A DNA stretch of 47,048 bases from a bacterium (GTDB taxonomy: Bacteria; Patescibacteriota; Minisyncoccia; Phycocordibacterales; CAIZLB01). Of this stretch, positions 3,090-44,636 are shown in pieces. The position numbers and the translations under genes were made by a program. The DNA is taken from assembly GCA_043718245.1 (NCBI GenBank), contig JAYSWB010000029.1, positions 1 through 47,048 on the forward strand. Reading direction: 5' to 3'. Position 1 is the stretch's first letter; the number at the start of each line of letters is the position of its first letter. Below the pieces are notes generated by a model. The model was not told where the DNA came from. It saw only the letters and a list, made by a program, of their open reading frames with translations, and did no database searches.

Positions 3090-4373
3090 ATGGGAGAACT
3101 TCCACAAAATTTCGATAGGTTAAAAGCGTCAGCGCAAGAACCACAAGTAGAAACTACTGCCCCAACAAACGAAGCTCAAGTTTTTGCTGACTTAAATGAG
3201 GACAACAAGGGATTTTTTGCAAAGCTAAGTGAGGGAAGCAAGCAGCTTGCAGGTTGGGCTTATGAAAAAATAAAAAATACCCCTGTAGTTGGCAAACTAG
3301 TCGGAAAGGCACAGATCGCATTCCATGAACATTGGATGAACAAGCATGAGGAAAAAGCCAATGGTTTGAAAGGGAGAATCGAAGAAACAAATGCAAAAAT
3401 TGCAGAAATGGAAAATTCGCATGCAGAAATTTCTGGAGCTCTAGAAGAATTGCGGGCTCAGAATGTTCCAAATATGAAATCGGTGGAAGAAAAATTACGT
3501 TCGATTGAAAATAATAAAAAGAAATTAGAAGGAACTAGAGATGGTTTCCAAGGTAAACTTGAGGCAAGAAACGAAAAAATGAAAATGCGGACAGAAAAGA
3601 GGGATGCTGTGGTAGATGAATTCATTTCAAAAGCCACTGAAAAACTTGACCTTGTAGAGAAAAAATTTGAAGAATTAAAAGATAGTAAAAACCAAGTAGA
3701 GCTTAAAGCTTCAATAGCAGAAGTCAGATATAGAAAACAAATTGAAGGATTGGATAAACAGCAGGATGCTAAAACTAAAATTGAAAATGCCCTAAAGAAA
3801 CTCGGTATGACGGATTCGGAAATACAAAAAGATCCAAGTTTGATCAGTCTTAACACCTCAATTACAGAAGGAAAGAAGGCGATTGAGAGCTCTAGGGCCG
3901 AAATGATAAAAGAGCGAGAAGGTATAGACAAGCAGGGTAGAAAAGTCGAACCAAAAGTAAGAAGCTTTAAAAATAAAATAGCAGAATTTCAAAGAATGAA
4001 AGAGAAGAGACCTTCAGCTGTTGGGGTGGAGGAAGCCCAAACGGCATATGAAGATGAACCAGAACCTGTAATTGAATCAAAAGTCGAAGCGGGTACCGAA
4101 GAGTTTTCTGTTAAAACATTTATCGAAGAATTCAATAAATTCCTTGTAGAAAAGTTTGGAAATAATAAGGAACCTGAGATGATAGACGTTAATAAATTTA
4201 CAGAAATTACAAAAGGCATTAAAGAGCTTGCACCGGATGCAAATATTCAATTTGATGAGTTCAGAAATATAATCCCGAGTTATTTAAAATCAATTGGGGT
4301 TGATAGTAAACGAGTGAAGGTTTTGCTCGGTGATTTTTATCAAGAAAAGATTTTCAAACCTAAAACTAATTAA
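3090..4373 (+). CDS. hypothetical coiled-coil protein
   Basis: 427-aa ORF, very K/E-rich with heptad-like composition. No catalytic motif recognised. Confidence 0.5.
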   Translation: MGELPQNFDRLKASAQEPQVETTAPTNEAQVFADLNEDNKGFFAKLSEGSKQLAGWAYEKIKNTPVVGKLVGKAQIAFHEHWMNKHEEKANGLKGRIEETNAKIAEMENSHAEISGALEELRAQNVPNMKSVEEKLRSIENNKKKLEGTRDGFQGKLEARNEKMKMRTEKRDAVVDEFISKATEKLDLVEKKFEELKDSKNQVELKASIAEVRYRKQIEGLDKQQDAKTKIENALKKLGMTDSEIQKDPSLISLNTSITEGKKAIESSRAEMIKEREGIDKQGRKVEPKVRSFKNKIAEFQRMKEKRPSAVGVEEAQTAYEDEPEPVIESKVEAGTEEFSVKTFIEEFNKFLVEKFGNNKEPEMIDVNKFTEITKGIKELAPDANIQFDEFRNIIPSYLKSIGVDSKRVKVLLGDFYQEKIFKPKTN

Positions 4374-4378
4374 AAAAC

Positions 4379-4645
4379 ATGACTGACGATCAAAACACAA
4401 CAAAACAAGATTTAAAAAACCAAATTCAAGCGCTGATGGCCCAAGTAGAAAAGGAAAATCAGGAAAATGCAGTGGTCAATAAGCAAATGATCAGTGAGGT
4501 TAAAGAATTGAAACAAAAAATCGATGTAATTGGGGCTGATATTGAGAAGGATTTAAATGAACTTGATAAGATTGAAAAAGAAACGGGGGATAAGTTGGAT
4601 AAAATTATTCTTGAGCAGGCAGAGGATGCTGGGGATGATTTGTAG
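4379..4645 (+). CDS. small hypothetical coiled-coil protein
   Basis: 88-aa K/E/Q-rich ORF starting 5 nt after the previous gene, consistent with co-transcription. Confidence 0.4.
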   Translation: MTDDQNTTKQDLKNQIQALMAQVEKENQENAVVNKQMISEVKELKQKIDVIGADIEKDLNELDKIEKETGDKLDKIILEQAEDAGDDL

Positions 4646-4658
4646 GGTTTTTTTGGGG

Positions 4659-4687
4659 CTCTCCCCACGTCTCGGGCGTGGGGAGAG
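4659..4687. terminator. GC-rich hairpin (11-bp stem) after the coiled-coil gene pair
   Basis: CTCTCCCCACG-tctcggg-CGTGGGGAGAG. A T7 run precedes the stem rather than following it, so this is not a canonical intrinsic terminator. Confidence 0.4.
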
Positions 4688-5099
4688 CAAGCAGTATGAG
4701 GGTTCCTTGGAAAATTTCATAGTCACGAAACGACCTCTCTGTATAGGGTTAACTTATAGCAAATTGTACGAAAGGGGGTTTCTATAAGAAACTCACACTT
4801 CTGTCTTTGAAAATAAACCATTGCTAGACTAAGGAATATTTCAAAGTAAGAAGGCCTTCCACATGGTCCCTCTAGATAAGCTTTGTCTATGAAGGGTTTC
4901 AGATAATCAACAATTTCAGCAAATTTATTTGGCTCTATATATTTATCTTTTACTGTAACTTATATGGTACTAACTATATTGAATCATCACCAATTTGATT
5001 AAAGGTTGACAGAGTGATATCTTTGTATTAGTTTTTGAATCAGAAAAAGCTGAAATCTTCAGCTACTTGATTCCTTAACACCAAACCAAAGGAGAAAGC

Positions 5100-6110
5100 A
5101 TGAAAAAGAAGAAAGAAACATTAGTGCTCGGAAGGATGTTGCAGAAGATCGCTCCTCGGATTGGAGCGAGTGTTCTTATGGAACCGGAATGGGAAATTGT
5201 TGGCCAGATCACGTTCAAGAGTGGTCAACACTCGTACTTTCGCTACAACACTCTCGATCTGAACCCTATGGGCGGTTCGGAAATCGCCCGTGACAAGGAC
5301 TATTCGAATTTCTTTATGAAGTCCATGGGCTATCCCGTTGTGCCATGCTCGAAGACGTTCTTCTCTGACCAGTGGGGAAAAGCGATTGGATCACCTCGAC
5401 GGAACATTGATGCCGCATATCGGCACGCACGAAAGATCGGGTTTCCGGTTATCGTGAAGCCAAACAGTGGCAGCCAAGGTGTCGGAGTCTCGCTCGTTCA
5501 CAACAAGCGAGAGTTCTACAAAGCAGTTCATTCCGTGTTTAAACGAGATCGGATAGTGCTCGTTCAGCAGCCAGTCCGTGGTAGGGATTATCGCCTCGTC
5601 GTCCTCGACAAAAAGGTGATATCGGCTTACGAGCGCATCCCGCTCAATGTTGTAGGCGACGGAAAGTCTACGATCGGACAACTCTTGAAAATCAAGCAAA
5701 AACAGTTCGTTGCTTCTAGCCGTGATACGAAAATAAAAACGGACGATCCACGAATTGCGATAAAACTGCTCCATCAAGGACTCAGCTTCCGATCGGTCCC
5801 TGCCAAAGGTCAGAAGGTCTACCTTTTGGACAATGCAAATCTGTCCACTGGTGGTGATTCAGTGGATGTAACCGAGAAGGTCCATCCAGCGTTCCTTAAA
5901 CTGGCCGTGGAGCTTACTCGTGACATGGGACTTCGCCTCTGTGGTGTTGATCTTATGATCGAAAGTGACATCAGTCAGAAGCCGAGTTCCTTCTGGGTTC
6001 TTGAGATCAACTCTGCGCCAGGCTTGGACCACTACGCTAAGATTGGCAAGGCACAAGAGCAGATCGTCGAGGATTTGTACCTTGAGGTTCTCAGACACAT
6101 GGAGCGCTAA
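5100..6110 (+). CDS. stand-alone ATP-grasp ligase, cyanophycin-synthetase-N-terminal-like
   Basis: Motifs PVIVKP..GSQG.GV, DYRLVVLD, NLSTGG and WVLEINSAPG. AGGAG-like RBS (aaaggagaaagcATG). G+C is visibly higher than the flanks. Confidence 0.7.
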   Translation: MKKKKETLVLGRMLQKIAPRIGASVLMEPEWEIVGQITFKSGQHSYFRYNTLDLNPMGGSEIARDKDYSNFFMKSMGYPVVPCSKTFFSDQWGKAIGSPRRNIDAAYRHARKIGFPVIVKPNSGSQGVGVSLVHNKREFYKAVHSVFKRDRIVLVQQPVRGRDYRLVVLDKKVISAYERIPLNVVGDGKSTIGQLLKIKQKQFVASSRDTKIKTDDPRIAIKLLHQGLSFRSVPAKGQKVYLLDNANLSTGGDSVDVTEKVHPAFLKLAVELTRDMGLRLCGVDLMIESDISQKPSSFWVLEINSAPGLDHYAKIGKAQEQIVEDLYLEVLRHMER

Positions 6111-6137
6111 TCTAATGCTCCTAGTCAAAAGTCAAAA

Positions 6138-6168
6138 ATGCTGGAGTTTCACCACTCCAGCATTTTTT
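6138..6168 (+). terminator. rho-independent terminator
   Basis: ATGCTGGAGT-ttcacc-ACTCCAGCAT followed by TTTTT, located 28 nt after the ATP-grasp stop codon. Confidence 0.8.
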
Positions 6169-6181
6169 ATATAATACATGC

Positions 6182-6649
6182 ATGGAAGAAACATTTACAT
6201 TAAAAGAACTACAAAGAATGGCTTCAGAATGTGTAGGATCTGTTCTTTACATACCCACAAAAAGTGAAGTTGATTATAAAGATCCGTCATTTCCCTTGGA
6301 AATAAATAAAGTCAATATTGTTACTATCCCAAAAGATAAAAACAGTGATCCATTTAAGTGGGTAAATATATGCATGGCTAAATTTAAAAATGATCCTGTC
6401 TGTGTTTTGGTTCCGGGAACCAGATTTGATGCTTACGGTACTCGCCATGGAAAAGGTGGAGGTTGGTACGATCGTTTTCTTTCTAAAATTCCATCTAGTT
6501 GGCTAAGGGTAGGTATTATTGATGTGGCAAAATTTTCAAGCTCTAAACTGACAATACAAGAATGGGATGAACCTGTTAATTGGATCATCGTCAGAGATGC
6601 TTTTTCCTGGAGTGTATATAAAGTCTCAGGCCCTCCGCATCGGCCTTAG
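6182..6649 (+). CDS. 5-formyltetrahydrofolate cyclo-ligase family protein (short)
   Basis: VLVPGTRFDAYGTRHGKGGGWYDRFL matches the family's PG.AFD..G.R.G.G.GYYDR motif. At 155 aa it is shorter than typical members. Confidence 0.65.
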   Translation: MEETFTLKELQRMASECVGSVLYIPTKSEVDYKDPSFPLEINKVNIVTIPKDKNSDPFKWVNICMAKFKNDPVCVLVPGTRFDAYGTRHGKGGGWYDRFLSKIPSSWLRVGIIDVAKFSSSKLTIQEWDEPVNWIIVRDAFSWSVYKVSGPPHRP

Positions 6650-6724
6650 TGGTGCTCTCGACAGGAATCGAACCTGTATCATAACTTCCGCAAAGTTACG
6701 TCCTATCCATTGAACGACGAGAGC
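6650..6724 (-). tRNA. tRNA-Arg (anticodon GCG), CCA encoded
   Basis: Folded by hand as GCTCTCG-TC-GTTC-AATGGATA-GGAC-G-TAACT-TTGCGGA-AGTTA-TGAT-ACAGG-TTCGATT-CCTGT-CGAGAGC-A-CCA. All stems pair. Confidence 0.85.
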
Positions 6725-6752
6725 GTCAAGTTAAATTACCATAAACTATAGA

Positions 6753-6789
6753 TAAATGAAAACGCCGGCGGACCTCTGGTCCGCCGGCG
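6753..6789 (-). terminator. rho-independent terminator of the 6801..7580 gene
   Basis: 13-bp GC stem ACGCCGGCGGACC-tct-GGTCCGCCGGCGT, followed on the minus strand by TTTCATTT. Confidence 0.75.
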
Positions 6790-6800
6790 TTGATTATCCG

Positions 6801-7580
6801 TCACCGCTTTTTCGCGGTTGACTTACTCTTTACAGGAAGGGGCTTTGGAATCCCATCCCACCACTTCAGGAGGAAGTCATCAGCTTCCTTGACGTATCCA
6901 TTCGGAATCTCTTCGGGCCGGAGTCCTTTTTTTGTTGTGAAGCTTGGACTCGGAACCCTTTCCTGAAGCCTCCTCCTAATATCCGCTGCTACTTGTGTTT
7001 GCAGCACTTTTACACCCTGAGGAGTGAACCCCTTGATGGTAAAACTGCCCCTCCATTCCAGCGGAATGAAAGCTTCCAGGTCTCCGACATCCTGGATCCC
7101 AATGATGGATGATGCGGGGGCCAAACCTTTCGGGTCCGCAACCCTCACATTGTTGACGTACTTCCTTTCAGGTTCCGTCAACCAAACGTGATAGAGAAAG
7201 TACAGATATCTTGACCAGAGATTCTCCCGCATCGTCCTTTGGGCGATGAGGAACGTGCTTGTTTTCTCGGTGACTATGGGTTGGGGGACACTAACGTCCA
7301 TTATCCAAGCTCGAAATGCCCGAATTACAATCGCCACTTTCTTGGGCTCAAATGAATCATCCACCTCAGGCCCTTGCCTTAGTGGTAATTTGGACGCCTC
7401 GTTTGGAGTCGAAGTCGTGACCTGGGCCTTGGTCTCCTCCGATTTGCGAATTCCGAGAATGTTTCGGACAATGTCCCCAATCAGACCCCATCCGTCATAT
7501 CTTCCGATTTGGTCACTAACGAGGAGTAAGAACACCCCAACTACAATCAGGCTCATTCTGTTTTTTGAGATCATTTTCAA
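6801..7580 (-). CDS. hypothetical secreted/membrane-anchored protein (higher-G+C cassette)
   Basis: 259-aa ORF with an N-terminal hydrophobic segment (LIVVGVFLLLV). About 30 of 60 G+C in a hand-counted sample. Has its own terminator. Confidence 0.5.
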   Translation of the reverse strand: MKMISKNRMSLIVVGVFLLLVSDQIGRYDGWGLIGDIVRNILGIRKSEETKAQVTTSTPNEASKLPLRQGPEVDDSFEPKKVAIVIRAFRAWIMDVSVPQPIVTEKTSTFLIAQRTMRENLWSRYLYFLYHVWLTEPERKYVNNVRVADPKGLAPASSIIGIQDVGDLEAFIPLEWRGSFTIKGFTPQGVKVLQTQVAADIRRRLQERVPSPSFTTKKGLRPEEIPNGYVKEADDFLLKWWDGIPKPLPVKSKSTAKKR

Positions 7581-7679
7581 GTATCCTTTCTTTTTTGGTG
7601 TGAAATTGCAGTAACAATAGATCAGTCAAGGATCATTGCTAGGCTGGATAGTAAAACACTTGGGTGTTGCTGTCAATAT

Positions 7680-8153
7680 TTAAAAACCTATAGAGTTCAT
7701 GACTCTATGAGAAAATGATCCACGGTGTTCTTCTTCAGGTATATGTTCTAAAAGATGAGCGCGGACCAATTCTGGGTCAACATCCCAAATCATTGGAATA
7801 TGAATTAGAGGGACAAGCGGTTTACTTGAACGGATGTACAGTACCGAAGGCATTTCATAGTGATCATTATTTTCAACCCAAAAAGAATGCAGAGTACCGA
7901 AAGGATAAAGTACATTATCGATTAATATCCCAGCGCCATTTATCTCAAACCTAACATGATCAGGCTCCTTGTTTGCAAAAAGTATCATGCACGCACCACC
8001 AACCAGTATTAAAATCGATAGAATGTAGTTATTAAAAAGAAGGGCAATAATAAAAGCTGATACTGTAATTATTCCAACAGCCCAGAACCAATCAGGGCTT
8101 TTTTCACGATGTTCATATTCATGATTGTGCCAGATAATAGGATCTTTCTTCAT
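7680..8153 (-). CDS. hypothetical two-TM membrane protein
   Basis: 157-aa ORF with two adjacent hydrophobic helices followed by a soluble C-terminal domain. Confidence 0.5.
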   Translation of the reverse strand: MKKDPIIWHNHEYEHREKSPDWFWAVGIITVSAFIIALLFNNYILSILILVGGACMILFANKEPDHVRFEINGAGILIDNVLYPFGTLHSFWVENNDHYEMPSVLYIRSSKPLVPLIHIPMIWDVDPELVRAHLLEHIPEEEHRGSFSHRVMNSIGF

Positions 8154-8236
8154 TTGATACTATTGTAGCATTGCCTTGTTGTGCTGGGAATGGAGTATAA
8201 TGGATAAGTTACTAATAACCCATATTAAAAACCACC

Positions 8237-38840: not shown

Positions 38841-39227
38841 CTAAAGTCCGTTAGTTCCAGTCATCAACATCACTCCACTGTGTGGAGAAATGTCACTGGC
38901 ATTCATCGCAGCTGCTGCAGAACCTGCATTTATAGTTTTAACATTTCCATAAATATTAATGTACTGATATGTTCCGGCAGTAGCGGGTGTAGATACAGGA
39001 TAGTTCACAGGAGTAGTTACAGTATTATTCACAGAGCCTGAGACAAGCATCACTCCACTGTGTGAGGCGATGTCGGCTACAGTCATTGCCTGAAAAGCAT
39101 TATCTGCTGTTACAACTGAGACATTTCCGCTAGTGTTCACATATTGATATGTTGCAGCTAGTGAAAGTGTCGGTGCCAGAGTCATGATTGCACCCATCAA
39201 AGTACCCGTAATTAGTAGTTTTTTCAT
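38841..39227 (-). CDS. secreted protein with two tandem ~45-aa repeats
   Basis: Signal-peptide-like N-terminus. The repeats are ATYQYVNTSGNVSVVTADNAFQAMTVADIASHSGVMLVSG and GTYQYINIYGNVKTINAGSAAAAMNASDISPHSGVMLMTG. Confidence 0.5.
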   Translation of the reverse strand: MKKLLITGTLMGAIMTLAPTLSLAATYQYVNTSGNVSVVTADNAFQAMTVADIASHSGVMLVSGSVNNTVTTPVNYPVSTPATAGTYQYINIYGNVKTINAGSAAAAMNASDISPHSGVMLMTGTNGL

Positions 39228-39418
39228 AGTATTGTAAGGTTGTTTTAATAATTTGACCTTCAGTACTAAAGCCGACCGAGGTGAGTTTGTATGACAAGGG
39301 GGGTTGGGTTTTTTTGGGGGTGCCGTCGTAGAGGAAGTTAGAACTATATTTGAGAAAAGGAATGATGCAACGATCTACATTCCTGACATGCAAAGTATAG
39401 CAGTTTTAGGGTAATTTT

Positions 39419-39490
39419 GGCTCTTTTTGGCCTAATCTGGCTTAGCGTTAGGGTGAAAAAGGGCAAATTAGGGCAAATAGGTGCAAAAAA
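39419..39490. repeat. phased 10-bp tandem units (GG-start, A/T-tract end)
   Basis: GGCTCTTTTT GGCCTAATCT GGCTTAGCGT ta GGGTGAAAAA GGGCAAATTA GGGCAAATAG GTGCAAAAAA. Confidence 0.7.
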
Positions 39491-39502
39491 GAACACTTCT
39501 CA

Positions 39503-41476
39503 CTAGCTTTCATCAATGGCTTTGATAATTTCGAACACCCTTCCCACTTCCTTTTCCTTGGCTAAGTAGTCAGCGTACATCTTATGCGCATTTTGAATTA
39601 GCTCCTGATAAAGCACAACTCTGATGTTCTTCACGGCCAGGGACTTACTTGATTCATCTCTTTTTTGTGCATTTTTCCAATCGGAGAGCTTCTTTCCAAC
39701 AATACACACAACCTCAACTGGTTCTTTAATATTGGCGGCATCAAGGATTTCCGAGAGCTTGTCTCTATACTTTTCTACCTGTCCGAGTAACTCTGAAGTA
39801 CTGACCGTTCTGTCTGGTCTCTTTAATTCAATGATGATATGTTTACCGGCTGAATTCTTATATCGGATATCGACACGACCATCTTTCTCATCACCTTTTG
39901 CCTTGGCATTCAACTTATTGAAAGCTGTCTTCACCTGCTGTTCAAGATATGGCGCTTCTGTAGCTCGGTCCCAAGAGGGATCAAGTAGCCAAAGATTATC
40001 GTAGAGATGTTGCTGGACCACTTTTTCCAGAGCATTATCTTCAACTTTCTCCTGAAGTGCCTTAATAACAACCACCCTGGCTTTTGTGATTTGATGATAT
40101 AGTGTTGCTTCAATGTCATTATGCTCACTAAAAATCTGTGTGAACAAAGCCACATTTGAAGGGTTCATATTTTCGAGCGCATCAAGATTTTCTCTGTAGT
40201 TCAAAGTCTCAAATGCAAGAATCGCGTGCTTGAACAACGTCTTTCGCTGATCGTCTGATTCAAGTGTGAGCTGATTGATTTTTCCAAATAGTGACTCGGC
40301 TTTTTTCTTTTTATCTCCTTTCAGACCGGAGAACCATTGTTTTATAACCTTATTTTCTGTCGCTTTTTTAACACCCTCTTTATTTCTTAGGTCAGTCCAC
40401 TTTGATTGCACGTACTTCAACTCCCCATTGATGAAAGCCAGCAATTCCTTATATCTTGGATCATCGTTTATTATGCTTTGTCTGCTTGTCGTTGCGATAT
40501 CTTCCTCATCATCAGTATCCAAAAAATCAGCGTGGATTTCTCCAATTATATACTTAGTGTACATTCCACCTTCAGCAAAACTTTCCATGATGTCTTCCTG
40601 AGCAAGCTTTCCACGAACCATCACTACGATCTTATTAAGATTGTCCTCACCATCCTTCAAATCACCTGATGAATTGACGGTACCAATCCATCCAGTCACC
40701 TTTACTTTTTTACCCCTGATTGTTAGCTCACCATCTCTTTTTTCCTTATGTTCTACTTTTTCAGAACAGTGATCGGCATACTGTTTGCTGCTTGAACCGA
40801 AATACCAAATATATTGGAGCTTATGAAAATAATCCCGATCAGTGATTTTCACTTCAGAAGAATTAATGAGAACAGAAAACTTATTCTCACTTCCAAGAAC
40901 ACTAAAGCGTCTTGCCACTCTCTTTTTTAGAGCTTCGTCCGTACCTTCTGTCACATTCCTCTTGAGCTCAGAGATCGTTATCCTTGTACCATTCTTTGTA
41001 AGAGATATATTTTTAGGATCTATAGGCACAGGATGATACGTTCCCATACCTCCGGAAGCTTCCAACTGCTTCTCGATTTCGCTTGCGATCAAAACTAGAC
41101 CGTTCTTCTCACCCTCCTTGTAGGTTTCAATTTCAATTTTATTAGCTATAGAAAACAGAGATAGTTTTCCGATACCCTTTCGACCCATAACAGGACGCTT
41201 ATATTTTTTGGTAACTGACATACCAGCCTTCCTTCGATCGTATCCAACAGTAAGGTATTTATCATTGATGTCATCAAGAGACATGCCATGTCCGTCGTCC
41301 TGAATCAATATTTTTTCTTTTTCTGTGGAAATCTCAACCTTAGTCGCATCGGCATCCCAAGCATTCGCAACAACCTCGGACAAAACCGCAGGGACGTTAC
41401 TATACAATTTTATGCCTAAGTGATTGAGTACATTTAGGCTAATTTTTATTTGATATTTTTTGTCGTTCTTTTCCAT
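39503..41476 (-). CDS. GHKL (HATPase_c, MORC/MutL-like) ATPase fused to a PD-(D/E)xK-like nuclease domain
   Basis: N box EVVANAWDADA, G1 box IQDDGHGMS, G2 box GRKGIGKLSLFS. C-terminal GRVDIRY...KHIIIELKRPD gives a D...E-x-K arrangement. Confidence 0.7.
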   Translation of the reverse strand: MEKNDKKYQIKISLNVLNHLGIKLYSNVPAVLSEVVANAWDADATKVEISTEKEKILIQDDGHGMSLDDINDKYLTVGYDRRKAGMSVTKKYKRPVMGRKGIGKLSLFSIANKIEIETYKEGEKNGLVLIASEIEKQLEASGGMGTYHPVPIDPKNISLTKNGTRITISELKRNVTEGTDEALKKRVARRFSVLGSENKFSVLINSSEVKITDRDYFHKLQYIWYFGSSSKQYADHCSEKVEHKEKRDGELTIRGKKVKVTGWIGTVNSSGDLKDGEDNLNKIVVMVRGKLAQEDIMESFAEGGMYTKYIIGEIHADFLDTDDEEDIATTSRQSIINDDPRYKELLAFINGELKYVQSKWTDLRNKEGVKKATENKVIKQWFSGLKGDKKKKAESLFGKINQLTLESDDQRKTLFKHAILAFETLNYRENLDALENMNPSNVALFTQIFSEHNDIEATLYHQITKARVVVIKALQEKVEDNALEKVVQQHLYDNLWLLDPSWDRATEAPYLEQQVKTAFNKLNAKAKGDEKDGRVDIRYKNSAGKHIIIELKRPDRTVSTSELLGQVEKYRDKLSEILDAANIKEPVEVVCIVGKKLSDWKNAQKRDESSKSLAVKNIRVVLYQELIQNAHKMYADYLAKEKEVGRVFEIIKAIDES

Positions 41477-42533
41477 TTTTCTGTAGATGCTGTTTTATAC
41501 TTTGACCTATAACTTCTCCCAATCTAACAGGAACTGCATTACCAATAAATTTTGCCACTTGAGCAACAATAATTGGTTCGTTTGAAGGGACAAACTGGTA
41601 GTCCTTGGGGAAGGTTTGGAATATAGCCGCTTCACGAAGACTTATGGCTCTGTTCTGCTTTGGATGACCGAATCTACCATTTCCAAGACCTACGCATTGA
41701 GTCGTCATGGTAGGGGCAGGCTCATCCCACCTCATTCGCCCATATACAGTACTGCTGTAGGTCTTTCCTGATTCTTTCTTGTGGCACTCTAACACCAAAT
41801 CGTCAGACCAGCTATCTGAATTGCCTCCATCATGAGGAGTAGCTTTAATACGTCTCAAATTAACTGGAGCGAGCTTTCGTGATCGATGTAGAAGATCTTT
41901 TTTGCTTGTCTCTCCATCCTTGATTGGTTCAAGGTCTTTAATCACATCTCAAACAGTGACTCGATTATCCTTATGGGTTCTTTTAATCAAAGAAATCTCA
42001 CCCAGCTTGGAAGCAAGTAGAACTAATCTTCGGCGTCTTTGTGGTACTCCAAACTCTGACACATCAACAACTTCATATTTATATTTATATCCATTATCTT
42101 CCAAGGTCTTAAGAAAGTTTGCAAAAACAGGATATTTATTAGTGTCAGCTAGGCCGCTTACGTTTTCCATAGAAACAACATCCGGTTGAGTCTGCGCAAT
42201 AAGCTGGGCAAACTTTCCTAATGGCTCAAGTTGTTTTTGTGTAACTTCTTTTAAATTTAATTTCGAGAAGGGCTGACAGGGTGCGCAACCTGCAAGCACT
42301 CGAATTGAATCTTTTTTTGAACCAAATAATTCGTTCACCTGATCAGCAGTAACCTTGAGAATATCTTTGTCGATAAATTTTGTTTTGTTGTTGTACTCGT
42401 ATCCAAATTTACACGACGAATCATTATCGATGCCAGCCACAACATCCAAACCTTCTTTTATGAGACCGTGCGTCAAACCGCCAATACCGCAGAATAAATC
42501 AATGACTTTAATTTTTTTACGATTTGAGCTCAT
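41439..42533 (-). pseudogene. DNA (cytosine-5) methyltransferase interrupted by one in-frame TGA (41949..41951)
   Basis: The upstream part has motifs I FCGIGG, IV PCQPFS, VI ENV and VIII QRRRR. The downstream part, in the same frame, has RAISLREAAIFQTFP (IX) and GNAVP (X). The ATG at 42533 is preferred over the GTG at 42542. Confidence 0.8.
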
Positions 42534-42561
42534 TAGTAACACTATTATAATCTGAAAACAC

Positions 42562-43683
42562 TCAATTAGCGATATTTAAATTATTTTTCTTCTCGTGGAC
42601 CAACTCCAGTAGATCTTCTTCACGTTCATATCCTCGTAACCTACCGCTCAACATCCCTAACCGGTAATCGACCCCATCACTCATGAGCTTCCAGTTGGTG
42701 CCATTGAGAGTCGTTTTAATTGACTTCTTCAAATCAGACATGCTGTCATATTCTTTTCGGTCCTTAGAGTCATGAATTGAGAAAGAAACAATAATATCCT
42801 TCTTGGTTTCTGGCGTTTGAAAATGAAGCTTGATATAACCTCGAGCTTCTAAAGCAGGACTAAGCAATTCCTCAACTTCAATTATTTTCAACTTCTTCAA
42901 CTTTGCTACTTTTTCATAAGATTCTTTATTTACTTCTTTTTCTTCAATCTTTTTCATTGTCTCAATAGCAGCTTTCATATGATATTTGTAGTCTACATAT
43001 TTCTGACCTTCTTCTTGAGAAAGACAGAAGCGTGCCCGATCTCTTGCAAAATGAGGATCAACCTTATCTTTCGTCACTGATAATTCGAATTCGCTTTTTT
43101 TGCTAAACCCACATTTCAAACATTTGTCGGTAGATATAATTTTATTCCTTATCTTCTTTTCAGGAGTATGTTCCAGTTCAGCGCCACATTTAGGACAAGG
43201 GCTCGACCTAGACTTCCATTCTTCTCCATCACTATAGAAAGCTCTGCGCGGCACATGTGTAAGCGGACAATCATAGAAAAATAGGACCCGATCTTTATCC
43301 TTGTCACCCATCCACAAATGCTTTGACTCAACAAACATGAGTCGGCCACAAGTGAGGCAGGTTATATTTTCTGGAGCTTTTGCTGACTCAAAGATTTCAT
43401 CTCTTTCCTTGTCTCTGTCCATCCATTTACGAATAGTCTCCTCTTTACTAGCATATCGTTCACCCTTGGTGAAATACATGAATAGATTGTTGGCGAGCAT
43501 AACAGCACTCCTTTTTTCCTTTTTAGATAAATCGTCTTTATCATCTTCAGGTAATTCATGATCCCGAGATTCTAAACGACGGCACTCTTCAACAGTATGT
43601 TTATCGTATAAGTCTAAATAATATTGGTCAGATTTTAAGTATTTTGTTTTCTCTGTTTGGTCCATATCAATGATAATGACCAT
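42562..43683 (-). CDS. hypothetical Zn-ribbon protein
   Basis: About 373 aa from the ATG at 43683. Contains CLTCG, CPKCG and CLKCG pairs. Otherwise charged/helical, with no family recognised. Confidence 0.45.
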   Translation of the reverse strand: MVIIIDMDQTEKTKYLKSDQYYLDLYDKHTVEECRRLESRDHELPEDDKDDLSKKEKRSAVMLANNLFMYFTKGERYASKEETIRKWMDRDKERDEIFESAKAPENITCLTCGRLMFVESKHLWMGDKDKDRVLFFYDCPLTHVPRRAFYSDGEEWKSRSSPCPKCGAELEHTPEKKIRNKIISTDKCLKCGFSKKSEFELSVTKDKVDPHFARDRARFCLSQEEGQKYVDYKYHMKAAIETMKKIEEKEVNKESYEKVAKLKKLKIIEVEELLSPALEARGYIKLHFQTPETKKDIIVSFSIHDSKDRKEYDSMSDLKKSIKTTLNGTNWKLMSDGVDYRLGMLSGRLRGYEREEDLLELVHEKKNNLNIAN

Positions 43684-43690
43684 TTTATAA

Positions 43691-44482
43691 TTATTCTTTA
43701 CTACTCTTCCAAGCAAGCTCGAATATCATTCTCATCATATTGTGAATGAGTGGGTCCTCAATGATAAGTCCGGTGATATTCTCATCAGACATGTTAACGA
43801 TTGAGACCTTATTGTCTCCGTAAATAGTAATCTCTCCTTTAAAAGGAAACTGTTTTGCAGGAACATAATGCATGACCGGAATAATCTTTTTCTTAAATCC
43901 ATCGTACACACGAGAGTTAAACGTTCTATTTTCAGGAGTATCAGGAATAATACCTCGTGTGGTTATTCCCTTTCGTTCCTTTGTGCGACGATACTTCTCA
44001 AAAAACTCTTTGGGCAAGAAATACTCCAAATGGTTTGCATTTGATATCGCAACCATTTCATAAGGCTTTTCAGTTAAGATATGGTCCTCAAGAACTGTAA
44101 GGATGCCGTCAACACCTTCAAAATAACGTACGCGCGCCTTATTGGCGACCATATTATAAAGACCCTCTAGATCAGGTAGAAGTTGCTCTGTGCGTTCATA
44201 TTGGTCATTAGCCATGGTTATACGCGATTTGGCATGGCGAAGGAGACGGTCGGGGCGTTCAACCGTATAAAAGAGCTTGTTTTTCTTTTCAATCTCATTT
44301 ACTAGCCCTTTCACAGATAAATCCATCAAAATCGCATACACAGTGCTTCTGTTGAGCTTTATCTCTTCTGCGATTTTTGAGGGGTAAGCACCCCCTTTAT
44401 CGATTAAATAGCCATATATTAAGGCCTCTTTTGGAGACAAACCCACACGTTCAAGCTTTTGATTTAGTGAAGTATTGTACAT
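43691..44482 (-). CDS. TrmB-family winged-helix transcriptional regulator
   Basis: LSPKEALIYGYLIDKGGAYPSKIAEEIKLNRSTVYAILMDLSVKGLV is a TrmB-type N-terminal wHTH. A C-terminal domain of about 170 aa follows. Confidence 0.7.
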   Translation of the reverse strand: MYNTSLNQKLERVGLSPKEALIYGYLIDKGGAYPSKIAEEIKLNRSTVYAILMDLSVKGLVNEIEKKNKLFYTVERPDRLLRHAKSRITMANDQYERTEQLLPDLEGLYNMVANKARVRYFEGVDGILTVLEDHILTEKPYEMVAISNANHLEYFLPKEFFEKYRRTKERKGITTRGIIPDTPENRTFNSRVYDGFKKKIIPVMHYVPAKQFPFKGEITIYGDNKVSIVNMSDENITGLIIEDPLIHNMMRMIFELAWKSSKE

Positions 44483-44564
44483 GTAGATATGTTAACAAAT
44501 AACTGAACTTTTGTCAATTAAAACTAACAAAACTACTCATATACTAATAATACCTTTATATAAA

Positions 44565-44577
44565 GCCATATTATGGC
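44565..44577. promoter_or_regulatory. 13-bp perfect palindrome in the divergent promoter region
   Basis: GCCATA-T-TATGGC, lying between the TrmB-like gene (minus) and the desulfurase fusion gene (plus). Confidence 0.3.
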
Positions 44578-44636
44578 CAGATTATGTTAGTACTTTACCT
44601 ATAATATTGCAATGTAGTGTAATGTATGGGGTAATT

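Follow-up and report, generated by a model that had tools for sequence, protein, structure and literature searches.

A HgiDII/BbrUII-family restriction endonuclease combining a GHKL ATPase with a probable PD-(D/E)xK nuclease domain close to Shedu

Does the C-terminus of a GHKL ATPase encoded on a bacterial contig of 47,048 nucleotides (JAYSWB010000029.1; the whole stretch is called the window below) hold a nuclease active site and, if so, in which kind of system does the protein work? An initial annotation of the sequence had raised this question by pointing to a PD-(D/E)xK-like motif at the end of a minus-strand open reading frame (ORF), 39503..41476, in a locus whose best genome match is an uncultured Candidatus Saccharibacteria metagenome-assembled genome (98% identity). 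The answer favored here, with a probability of roughly 85%, is that this ORF encodes the restriction endonuclease (REase) of a two-gene Type II restriction-modification (R-M) system of the HgiDII/BbrUII kind, built from a GHKL ATPase and a PD-(D/E)xK nuclease. The family is already catalogued and the domain fusion is known, so that no new system is described. The GHKL domain of R.HgiDII was recognized in the classification of Type II enzymes by Orlowski and Bujnicki (2008; PMC2441816), in which HgiDII is listed under subtype P and its C-terminal domain, left without a fold assignment, is flagged as a possible new fold. A search of the searchable literature found no fold assignment of the HgiDII C-terminal domain after 2008, and its explicit placement among PD-(D/E)xK, Shedu-like nucleases is the sole modest addition made here, a small refinement of what is known about the family.

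Family membership is established by profile matches. The NCBIfam model NF050001 (BbrUII/HgiDII family restriction enzyme) is matched with an E-value of 1.4e-242 and 807 bits against a cutoff of 550, and the alignment runs end to end, placing residues 8-654 on positions 1-659 of the 659 in the profile. The Type II model REase_II of PADLOC also matches the protein (3e-93), and when PADLOC models were applied to 28 C-terminal domains, REase_II matched all 28 and the SduA models 2-3. The second gene of the system encodes a 5-methylcytosine (m5C) DNA methyltransferase (MTase) which, if an in-frame stop discussed below is read through, matches Pfam DNA_methylase (PF00145; 1.3e-61) and TIGR00675 dcm (2.6e-41). 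Of the 82 related loci compared, which come from archaea as well as many bacterial phyla, about 70 have an orthologous m5C MTase (43-57% identical) immediately before the REase gene, in the same orientation and ending where the REase starts, and the pairing persists in relatives of about 25% identity on Campylobacter coli and Pantoea plasmids. By this computational comparison, the methylase-endonuclease operon is conserved, and the upstream MTase is predicted to protect the host sites. The window pair thereby resembles the prototypes R.HgiDII/R.BbrUII and M.HgiDII/M.BbrUII in its full-length NF050001 match, the m5C MTase directly upstream and the GHKL N-terminus. Unlike in the prototypes, the MTase of the window contains an in-frame TGA and the GTCGAC specificity of the endonuclease is a presumed one.

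The motif itself was read correctly by the initial annotation. The reverse complement of 39821..39841 is CATATCATCATTGAATTAAAG and translates to HIIIELK, and residues 535-554 of the 657-residue ORF (window 39815..39874) read VDIRYKNSAGKHIIIELKRP; both strings are borne out by the reverse complement and the ORF translation, and the range originally marked (39503..40040) corresponds to residues 479-657. A bare D...ExK string is without diagnostic value, however, as a loose pattern of D-x(8-20)-hydrophobic-hydrophobic-E-x-K is found at 18 places in the window's 28 long ORFs, spread over 10 proteins, compared with 6.6 +/- 3.1 occurrences in shuffled sequences. Since the loose motif is this common, the case depends on conservation and structure, and these raise the string above chance.

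A search of a set of 5.8 billion proteins returned 7281 proteins at E <= 1e-5, and the best 120 of these 7281 homologues are all 645-685 residues long and 52-99% identical to the query. Conservation was assessed in two alignments, one of 48 close homologues from the protein search and one of 77 full-length sequences, each representing a cluster formed at 50% identity and sharing 33-51% identity with the query across the C-terminal domain. Six residues, namely E512, D536, E550, K552, Q566 and Y570, are invariant in all 48 homologues and all 77 representatives, so that the expected conservation of the D/E/K residues holds, and R534 is likewise invariant in the alignment of 48. When the C-terminal 186 residues were compared with 1.84 billion cluster representatives, 518 matches were obtained at E <= 1e-3, nearly all of them the C-terminus of proteins of about 640-710 residues, or fragments; the nuclease domain is therefore almost confined to an architecture of about 650-690 residues.

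The structural context of these residues was obtained from AlphaFold2 (AF2) models. Because the fold search with the full-length protein was swamped by Hsp90 and MORC, the C-terminal domain was modeled separately, giving a mean predicted local distance difference test score (pLDDT) of 81.6 for residues 479-657, next to 80.6 for the full-length model. Both models concur on a helix (509-524), two strands (534-542 and 545-552), a second helix (560-580) and a following strand-helix-strand-helix. Motif I therein lies on the first helix, and D536 and E550/K552 lie on the two consecutive strands, just as had been proposed from the sequence; an upstream helical E followed by D and ExK on successive strands is the residue arrangement that defines PD-(D/E)xK nucleases. 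In addition, the QxxxY motif (Q566, Y570) is carried by the helix that follows the ExK strand, the feature that distinguishes the RecB-like subgroup.

Searches with profiles and with the domain model lead to the same superfamily. In the PDB, the nuclease domain of Bacillus cereus Shedu scores best (8ti9; E 5.8e-4, probability 0.99); it possesses the same set of motifs I-IV and is followed by lower matches to EcoT38I, XisH and Nt.BspD6I (probability 0.96, rmsd 3.8 A over 93 columns). In BFVD, a library of viral structures, the matches include an Mrr-domain protein, phage 'restriction endonucleases' and RPB5. Among Pfam profiles, SduA_C (PF14082) aligns with the window protein at E 7e-5 and 23.3-23.6 bits, short of its gathering score of 27, and 19 of 28 family members are hit at E < 0.01, with a best E-value of 2.8e-6 and a score for one relative (P0086) of 25.5 bits, again below 27. 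PDDEXK_2, PDDEXK_4, NucS_C and Mrr_cat give occasional sub-threshold matches among family members, those of NucS_C over residues 533-575 being weak (E 0.017-0.11). Taken with the invariant motifs I-IV, the fold match to 8ti9 and the sub-threshold Pfam matches uphold the earlier proposal that the C-terminal ~180 residues resemble PD-(D/E)xK nucleases of the Shedu, NucS or RecB kind, and the placement of the HgiDII-type C-terminal domain in this superfamily, next to Shedu, is supported by sequence comparison and modeling. It is the only candidate nuclease in the protein.

The N-terminal part is, as had also been claimed, a GHKL ATPase, and its ATP motifs are intact; the fusion of ATPase and nuclease is thus supported, with the domain layout given in Table 1. 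The motif residues characteristic of the GHKL superfamily are invariant or nearly so in the 77 representatives; the middle-domain residue K290 is lysine in 62 of them and arginine in 15. In Foldseek searches, the ATPase and the middle domain together match TRAP1, Hsp90 and GRP94 as well as MORC2/3/4 (E ~5e-13 over 390-470 columns), and a full-length phmmer search against the PDB retrieved GHKL proteins only. The long helices of the linker, for which the AF2 confidence is lower (pLDDT about 55-88), presumably form a dimerization or lever arm.

Table 1. Coordinates of the endonuclease gene, its domains and motifs, and its partner methyltransferase gene in the window.
Feature	Position	Strand	Details
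REase gene, 657 residues + stop	39503..41476	minus	GHKL ATPase, middle domain, helical linker, PD-(D/E)xK nuclease
GHKL (Bergerat-fold) ATPase domain, ~residues 8-192	40901..41455	minus	Pfam HATPase_c_3 3.4e-20 over residues 30-139
GHKL motifs			I E34-x3-N38-x2-D41; II D60-x-G62-x-G64; III G98-x2-G101-x-G103; IV T164
Middle (S5/transducer-like) alpha/beta domain, ~residues 193-335, boundaries approximate	40472..40900	minus	AF2 secondary structure
Long helical linker, ~residues 336-480 (~145 residues)	40037..40471	minus	AF2 helices 340-372, 376-401, 408-435, 442-479
Putative PD-(D/E)xK nuclease domain, ~residues 481-657	39506..40036	minus	AF2 domain model, fold match 8ti9, SduA_C matches
Motif I, E512	39941..39943	minus	helix 509-524 (AF2); invariant 48/48, 77/77
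Motif II, D536 (R534-x-D536)	39869..39871	minus	strand 534-542 (AF2); invariant 48/48, 77/77
Motif III, E550-L-K552	39821..39829	minus	end of strand 545-552 (AF2); invariant 48/48, 77/77; DNA verified
Motif IV, Q566-x3-Y570, RecB-type QxxxY	39767..39781	minus	helix 560-580 (AF2); both residues 48/48, 77/77
Cognate m5C MTase gene	41439..42533	minus	upstream of REase, overlaps REase start by 38 nt
In-frame TGA, MTase codon 195	41949..41951	minus	after motif VIII, at start of variable region
GTG two codons downstream of the TGA	41943-41945	minus	

Several known systems share parts of this architecture. One published description is that of paraMORC3, in which GHKL and S5 domains precede a C-terminal RecB-like restriction-endonuclease-fold domain with E-D-ExK motifs, in association with R-M systems (Iyer, Abhiman and Aravind, 2008; PMC2292703). 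By that description, the window protein is like paraMORC3 in both architecture and motifs, whereas many nuclease-bearing paraMORC3 genes stand alone without conserved neighbors and the HgiDII family keeps a close association with an m5C MTase. The nuclease motifs of B. cereus Shedu are E204, D249, E264/K266 and Q295, and type 1D Shedu proteins include proteins with GHKL N-terminal domains (Gu et al., 2023; bioRxiv 10.1101/2023.08.10.552793). One of these, VcSduA of V. cholerae, has the same order of an N-terminal GHKL domain and a C-terminal nuclease (DUF4263), and phage defense is abolished either by the ATPase substitution E27A or by a nuclease variant (2025; PMC12137116). In comparison with Shedu, the motif spacing of the window protein is shorter, with 24 versus 45 residues from E to D and 14 versus 29 from K to Q, and D536 is on a strand in the model where Shedu presents a long regulatory 'motif II loop'. 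Furthermore, Shedu works without a methylase and the window enzyme has a conserved m5C MTase partner. The protein accordingly falls outside Shedu proper, with PF14082 below its gathering score and a gene context that is neither single-gene nor methylase-free.

The D...ExK...QxxxY arrangement is also that of NucS/EndoMS and RecB-family nucleases, but the window protein is without the NucS N-terminal domain and occurs in a restriction rather than a mismatch repair context; scores for PF01939 (E 0.056-0.11; 13-14 versus 24 bits) and NF003270 (14.2 versus 216 bits) likewise place it outside NucS/EndoMS. MutL-MutH/Vsr and MORC resemble it in coupling a GHKL and transducer ATPase to a restriction-endonuclease-fold nuclease and a DNA methylation mark. 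In contrast to these, the window enzyme has its nuclease on the same polypeptide and is partnered by a site-specific m5C MTase, and neither the MutL C-terminal endonuclease domain nor the CW or coiled-coil features of MORC are present.

A mechanism that joins the two activities can be proposed from these parallels. GHKL ATPases generally dimerize on ATP binding. In the window enzyme, ATP would bring the GHKL domains together as a dimer, in the manner of MutL, MORC and Hsp90, and the movement would be relayed through the middle domain and the helical arms, closing or aligning two nuclease domains on duplex DNA. The site formed by E512, D536, E550-x-K552 and Q566-x3-Y570 would coordinate Mg2+ and cleave unmethylated DNA, such that cleavage of unmethylated sites would be licensed by the ATPase cycle. 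The dimer geometry in this scheme is presumed. The chances that ATP is required for cleavage are judged to be even, an estimate drawn by analogy because the ATPase motifs are strictly conserved and VcSduA needs both activities. A wider and more tentative proposal, to which we assign clearly less than even odds, is that HgiDII-family enzymes may be ATP-licensed nucleases with a divergent Shedu/RecB-type module and not orthodox Type IIP enzymes, and would thereby bridge R-M systems, paraMORC/MORC clamps and Shedu.

Several observations pull in the other direction, with regard to the fold, the ATP dependence and the state of the system in this genome. The match to Shedu 8ti9 has a TM-score of only 0.36 and an rmsd of 12 A; TM-scores in the fold search are 0.3-0.37 overall, and only two PDB matches reach E <= 1e-3. 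The model contains two strands only before the QxxxY helix and shows no evident counterpart of the first strand in the canonical alpha-beta-beta-beta-alpha-beta core. For the window protein, no Pfam nuclease family scores at or above its gathering threshold, and a sequence profile of this domain, run against every PDB chain, gave only spurious NUDIX matches (E ~0.4). HgiDII was reportedly first characterized in standard Type II digests without added ATP, which would speak against ATP being strictly necessary. In the window, the partner MTase is interrupted by a premature TGA, and the absence of GTCGAC is weak evidence for the recognition site, as the palindromes ACGCGT, GGGCCC and CGGCCG are missing from the window too.

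This last point concerns the specificity of the enzyme. Both M.HgiDII and M.BbrUII are m5C MTases, the former acting on GTCGAC (PMC5867850). By analogy with the prototypes, the window enzyme presumably recognizes GTCGAC. This sequence occurs 0 times in the window against about 4.2-4.75 expected. Avoidance of GTCGAC was considered as proof of specificity and rejected, since the deficit is not significant alone and three other GC-rich palindromes are missing as well; the absence is therefore compatible with this specificity and not probative. CTTAAG and GGATCC are under-represented in the window.

The rival explanations can be weighed against the assignment to a Type II enzyme with a GHKL and a PD-(D/E)xK domain. 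A purely coincidental D...ExK string, in a C-terminal domain serving as a non-catalytic DNA-binding or oligomerization module, would fit the frequency of the loose motif (18 times in 28 ORFs) and the low TM-scores, but this reading is hardly credible given that all six motif residues are invariant at 33-51% identity of the domain, that sequence and structure searches lead independently to PD-(D/E)xK nucleases and that the protein, which has no other nuclease domain, belongs to a family named for characterized restriction enzymes. It is also improbable, if less extremely so, that the protein is a stand-alone Shedu type 1D or paraMORC3 nuclease that senses infection and is not the R of an R-M pair. 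Here, the best fold and Pfam matches are indeed to the Shedu nuclease domain, GHKL-Shedu fusions exist and VcSduA defends alone; against this, the protein scores far above the NF050001 cutoff with DUF4263 below threshold, PADLOC prefers REase_II (28/28) over SduA (2-3/28), and an m5C MTase adjoins in about 70 of the 82 loci. A weightier alternative, still considered unlikely, accepts the R-M assignment and describes an orthodox ATP-independent Type IIP enzyme, in which GHKL is a dimerization scaffold or a regulator, for instance delaying restriction in a new host, with no gating of each cleavage. The family is filed as plain Type II by NF050001 and PADLOC, and HgiDII belongs to subtype P (PMC2441816), as this explanation would have it. 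The GHKL motifs are, however, invariant or nearly so, with K290 K/R in 77 of 77 diverged representatives, and this conservation therefore speaks for selection on catalysis and not on a scaffold alone; in addition, the architecturally similar VcSduA needs its ATPase glutamate for defense (PMC12137116).

The remaining alternative concerns the state of the system in this genome and arises from the TGA at MTase codon 195, a position at which the relatives have arginine (CGA in locus L003 and CGG in locus L001). An alternative genetic code was considered for this codon and rejected, as TGA ends four other long ORFs of the 28 (five with the MTase N-terminal fragment) and the relatives have Arg and not Gly or Trp. 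With TGA an ordinary stop elsewhere in the window, the R-M system may therefore be non-functional in this genome: the nonsense codon would mean that the system is decaying or switched off and that the endonuclease is inactive, unexpressed or near loss, its motif being a relic here while still working in relatives. We regard such decay as rather doubtful. The REase ORF is intact with all catalytic residues present, and the ratio of nonsynonymous to synonymous substitution rates (dN/dS), computed against the close relatives L001 and L003, is 0.024-0.026 for the REase, 0.025-0.038 for the nuclease domain and 0.004-0.015 for the MTase. It is still only 0.009-0.039 in the part of the MTase downstream of the TGA, and any inactivation must therefore be very recent. 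Apart from a very recent nonsense mutation, the TGA could possibly be an assembly or sequencing error or mark a working two-piece methylase, with the GTG two codons past the stop. An intact endonuclease beside a dead methylase is normally lethal, and M.AquI is naturally split in the variable region. An MTase split at the boundary of this region might thus still work as a two-polypeptide enzyme and restrain the intact REase.

If the Type II assignment is accepted, the locus contributes to the annotation of the restriction barrier of Saccharibacteria, members of the candidate phyla radiation (CPR), and the HgiDII/BbrUII family gains defined candidate catalytic residues for mutagenesis (E512, D536, E550, K552, Q566 and Y570). 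A small gap would also be closed, in that the HgiDII C-terminal domain, foldless in the Type II classification of 2008, is now placed in PD-(D/E)xK. The family, with its thousands of bacterial and archaeal members, relies on a simple methylation-based switch between self and non-self; should ATP gating prove true, it would offer a tractable model for the control of a nuclease by a GHKL/MORC-type clamp.

The surroundings of the gene pair show traces of mobility. Window 39318..43626 is 92% identical in nucleotides to positions 3850..8169 of locus L001, a Logan contig, and this block of ~4.3 kb comprises a zinc-ribbon ORF, the MTase and the REase between flanks that differ; L003 has only the MTase and REase part in common with the window (39318..42573). 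Because the flanks of L001 differ and a serine recombinase is located immediately downstream of its REase, the comparison suggests that the R-M block may be a mobile cassette. The zinc-ribbon ORF (42562..43716, minus strand, 384 residues with CxxC motifs) lies upstream of the MTase and matches the Lar restriction-alleviation zinc ribbon PF14354 below threshold (E 4e-4; 20.9 versus 28.6 bits). It was considered as a conserved third component and rejected, as it adjoins the R-M pair in L001 only and is absent from the other 80 loci. Scans for promoters and terminators across 39200-44600 gave sites no more numerous than in shuffled sequences. Just past the REase stop, at 39460..39500, a T-run is followed by two direct copies of ATTTGCCCT, one base apart, and this repeat is close to the end (39318) of the block that the window shares with L001 and L003. 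A small minus-strand ORF beyond it (38841..39227) encodes a signal-peptide-like N-terminus and two copies of a unit of about 45 residues (TYQY.N..GNV....A..A..AM...DI..HSGVML), and this small ORF matches no family.

Finally, the relatives of about 25% identity are found on the C. coli plasmid pSH89 (locus L083, 2944..6016) and on a Pantoea plasmid (locus L084, 2932..5950), where they are annotated as 'ATP-binding protein' and are encoded directly after an m5C MTase within prophage-like plasmid regions. Their NF050001 scores (336 and 304 bits, respectively) are below the cutoff. The C. coli protein retains D, ExK and QxxxY, and in the Pantoea protein M replaces the motif III lysine in the alignment. 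The two probably represent sister subfamilies of restriction enzymes for which current annotation has no name.

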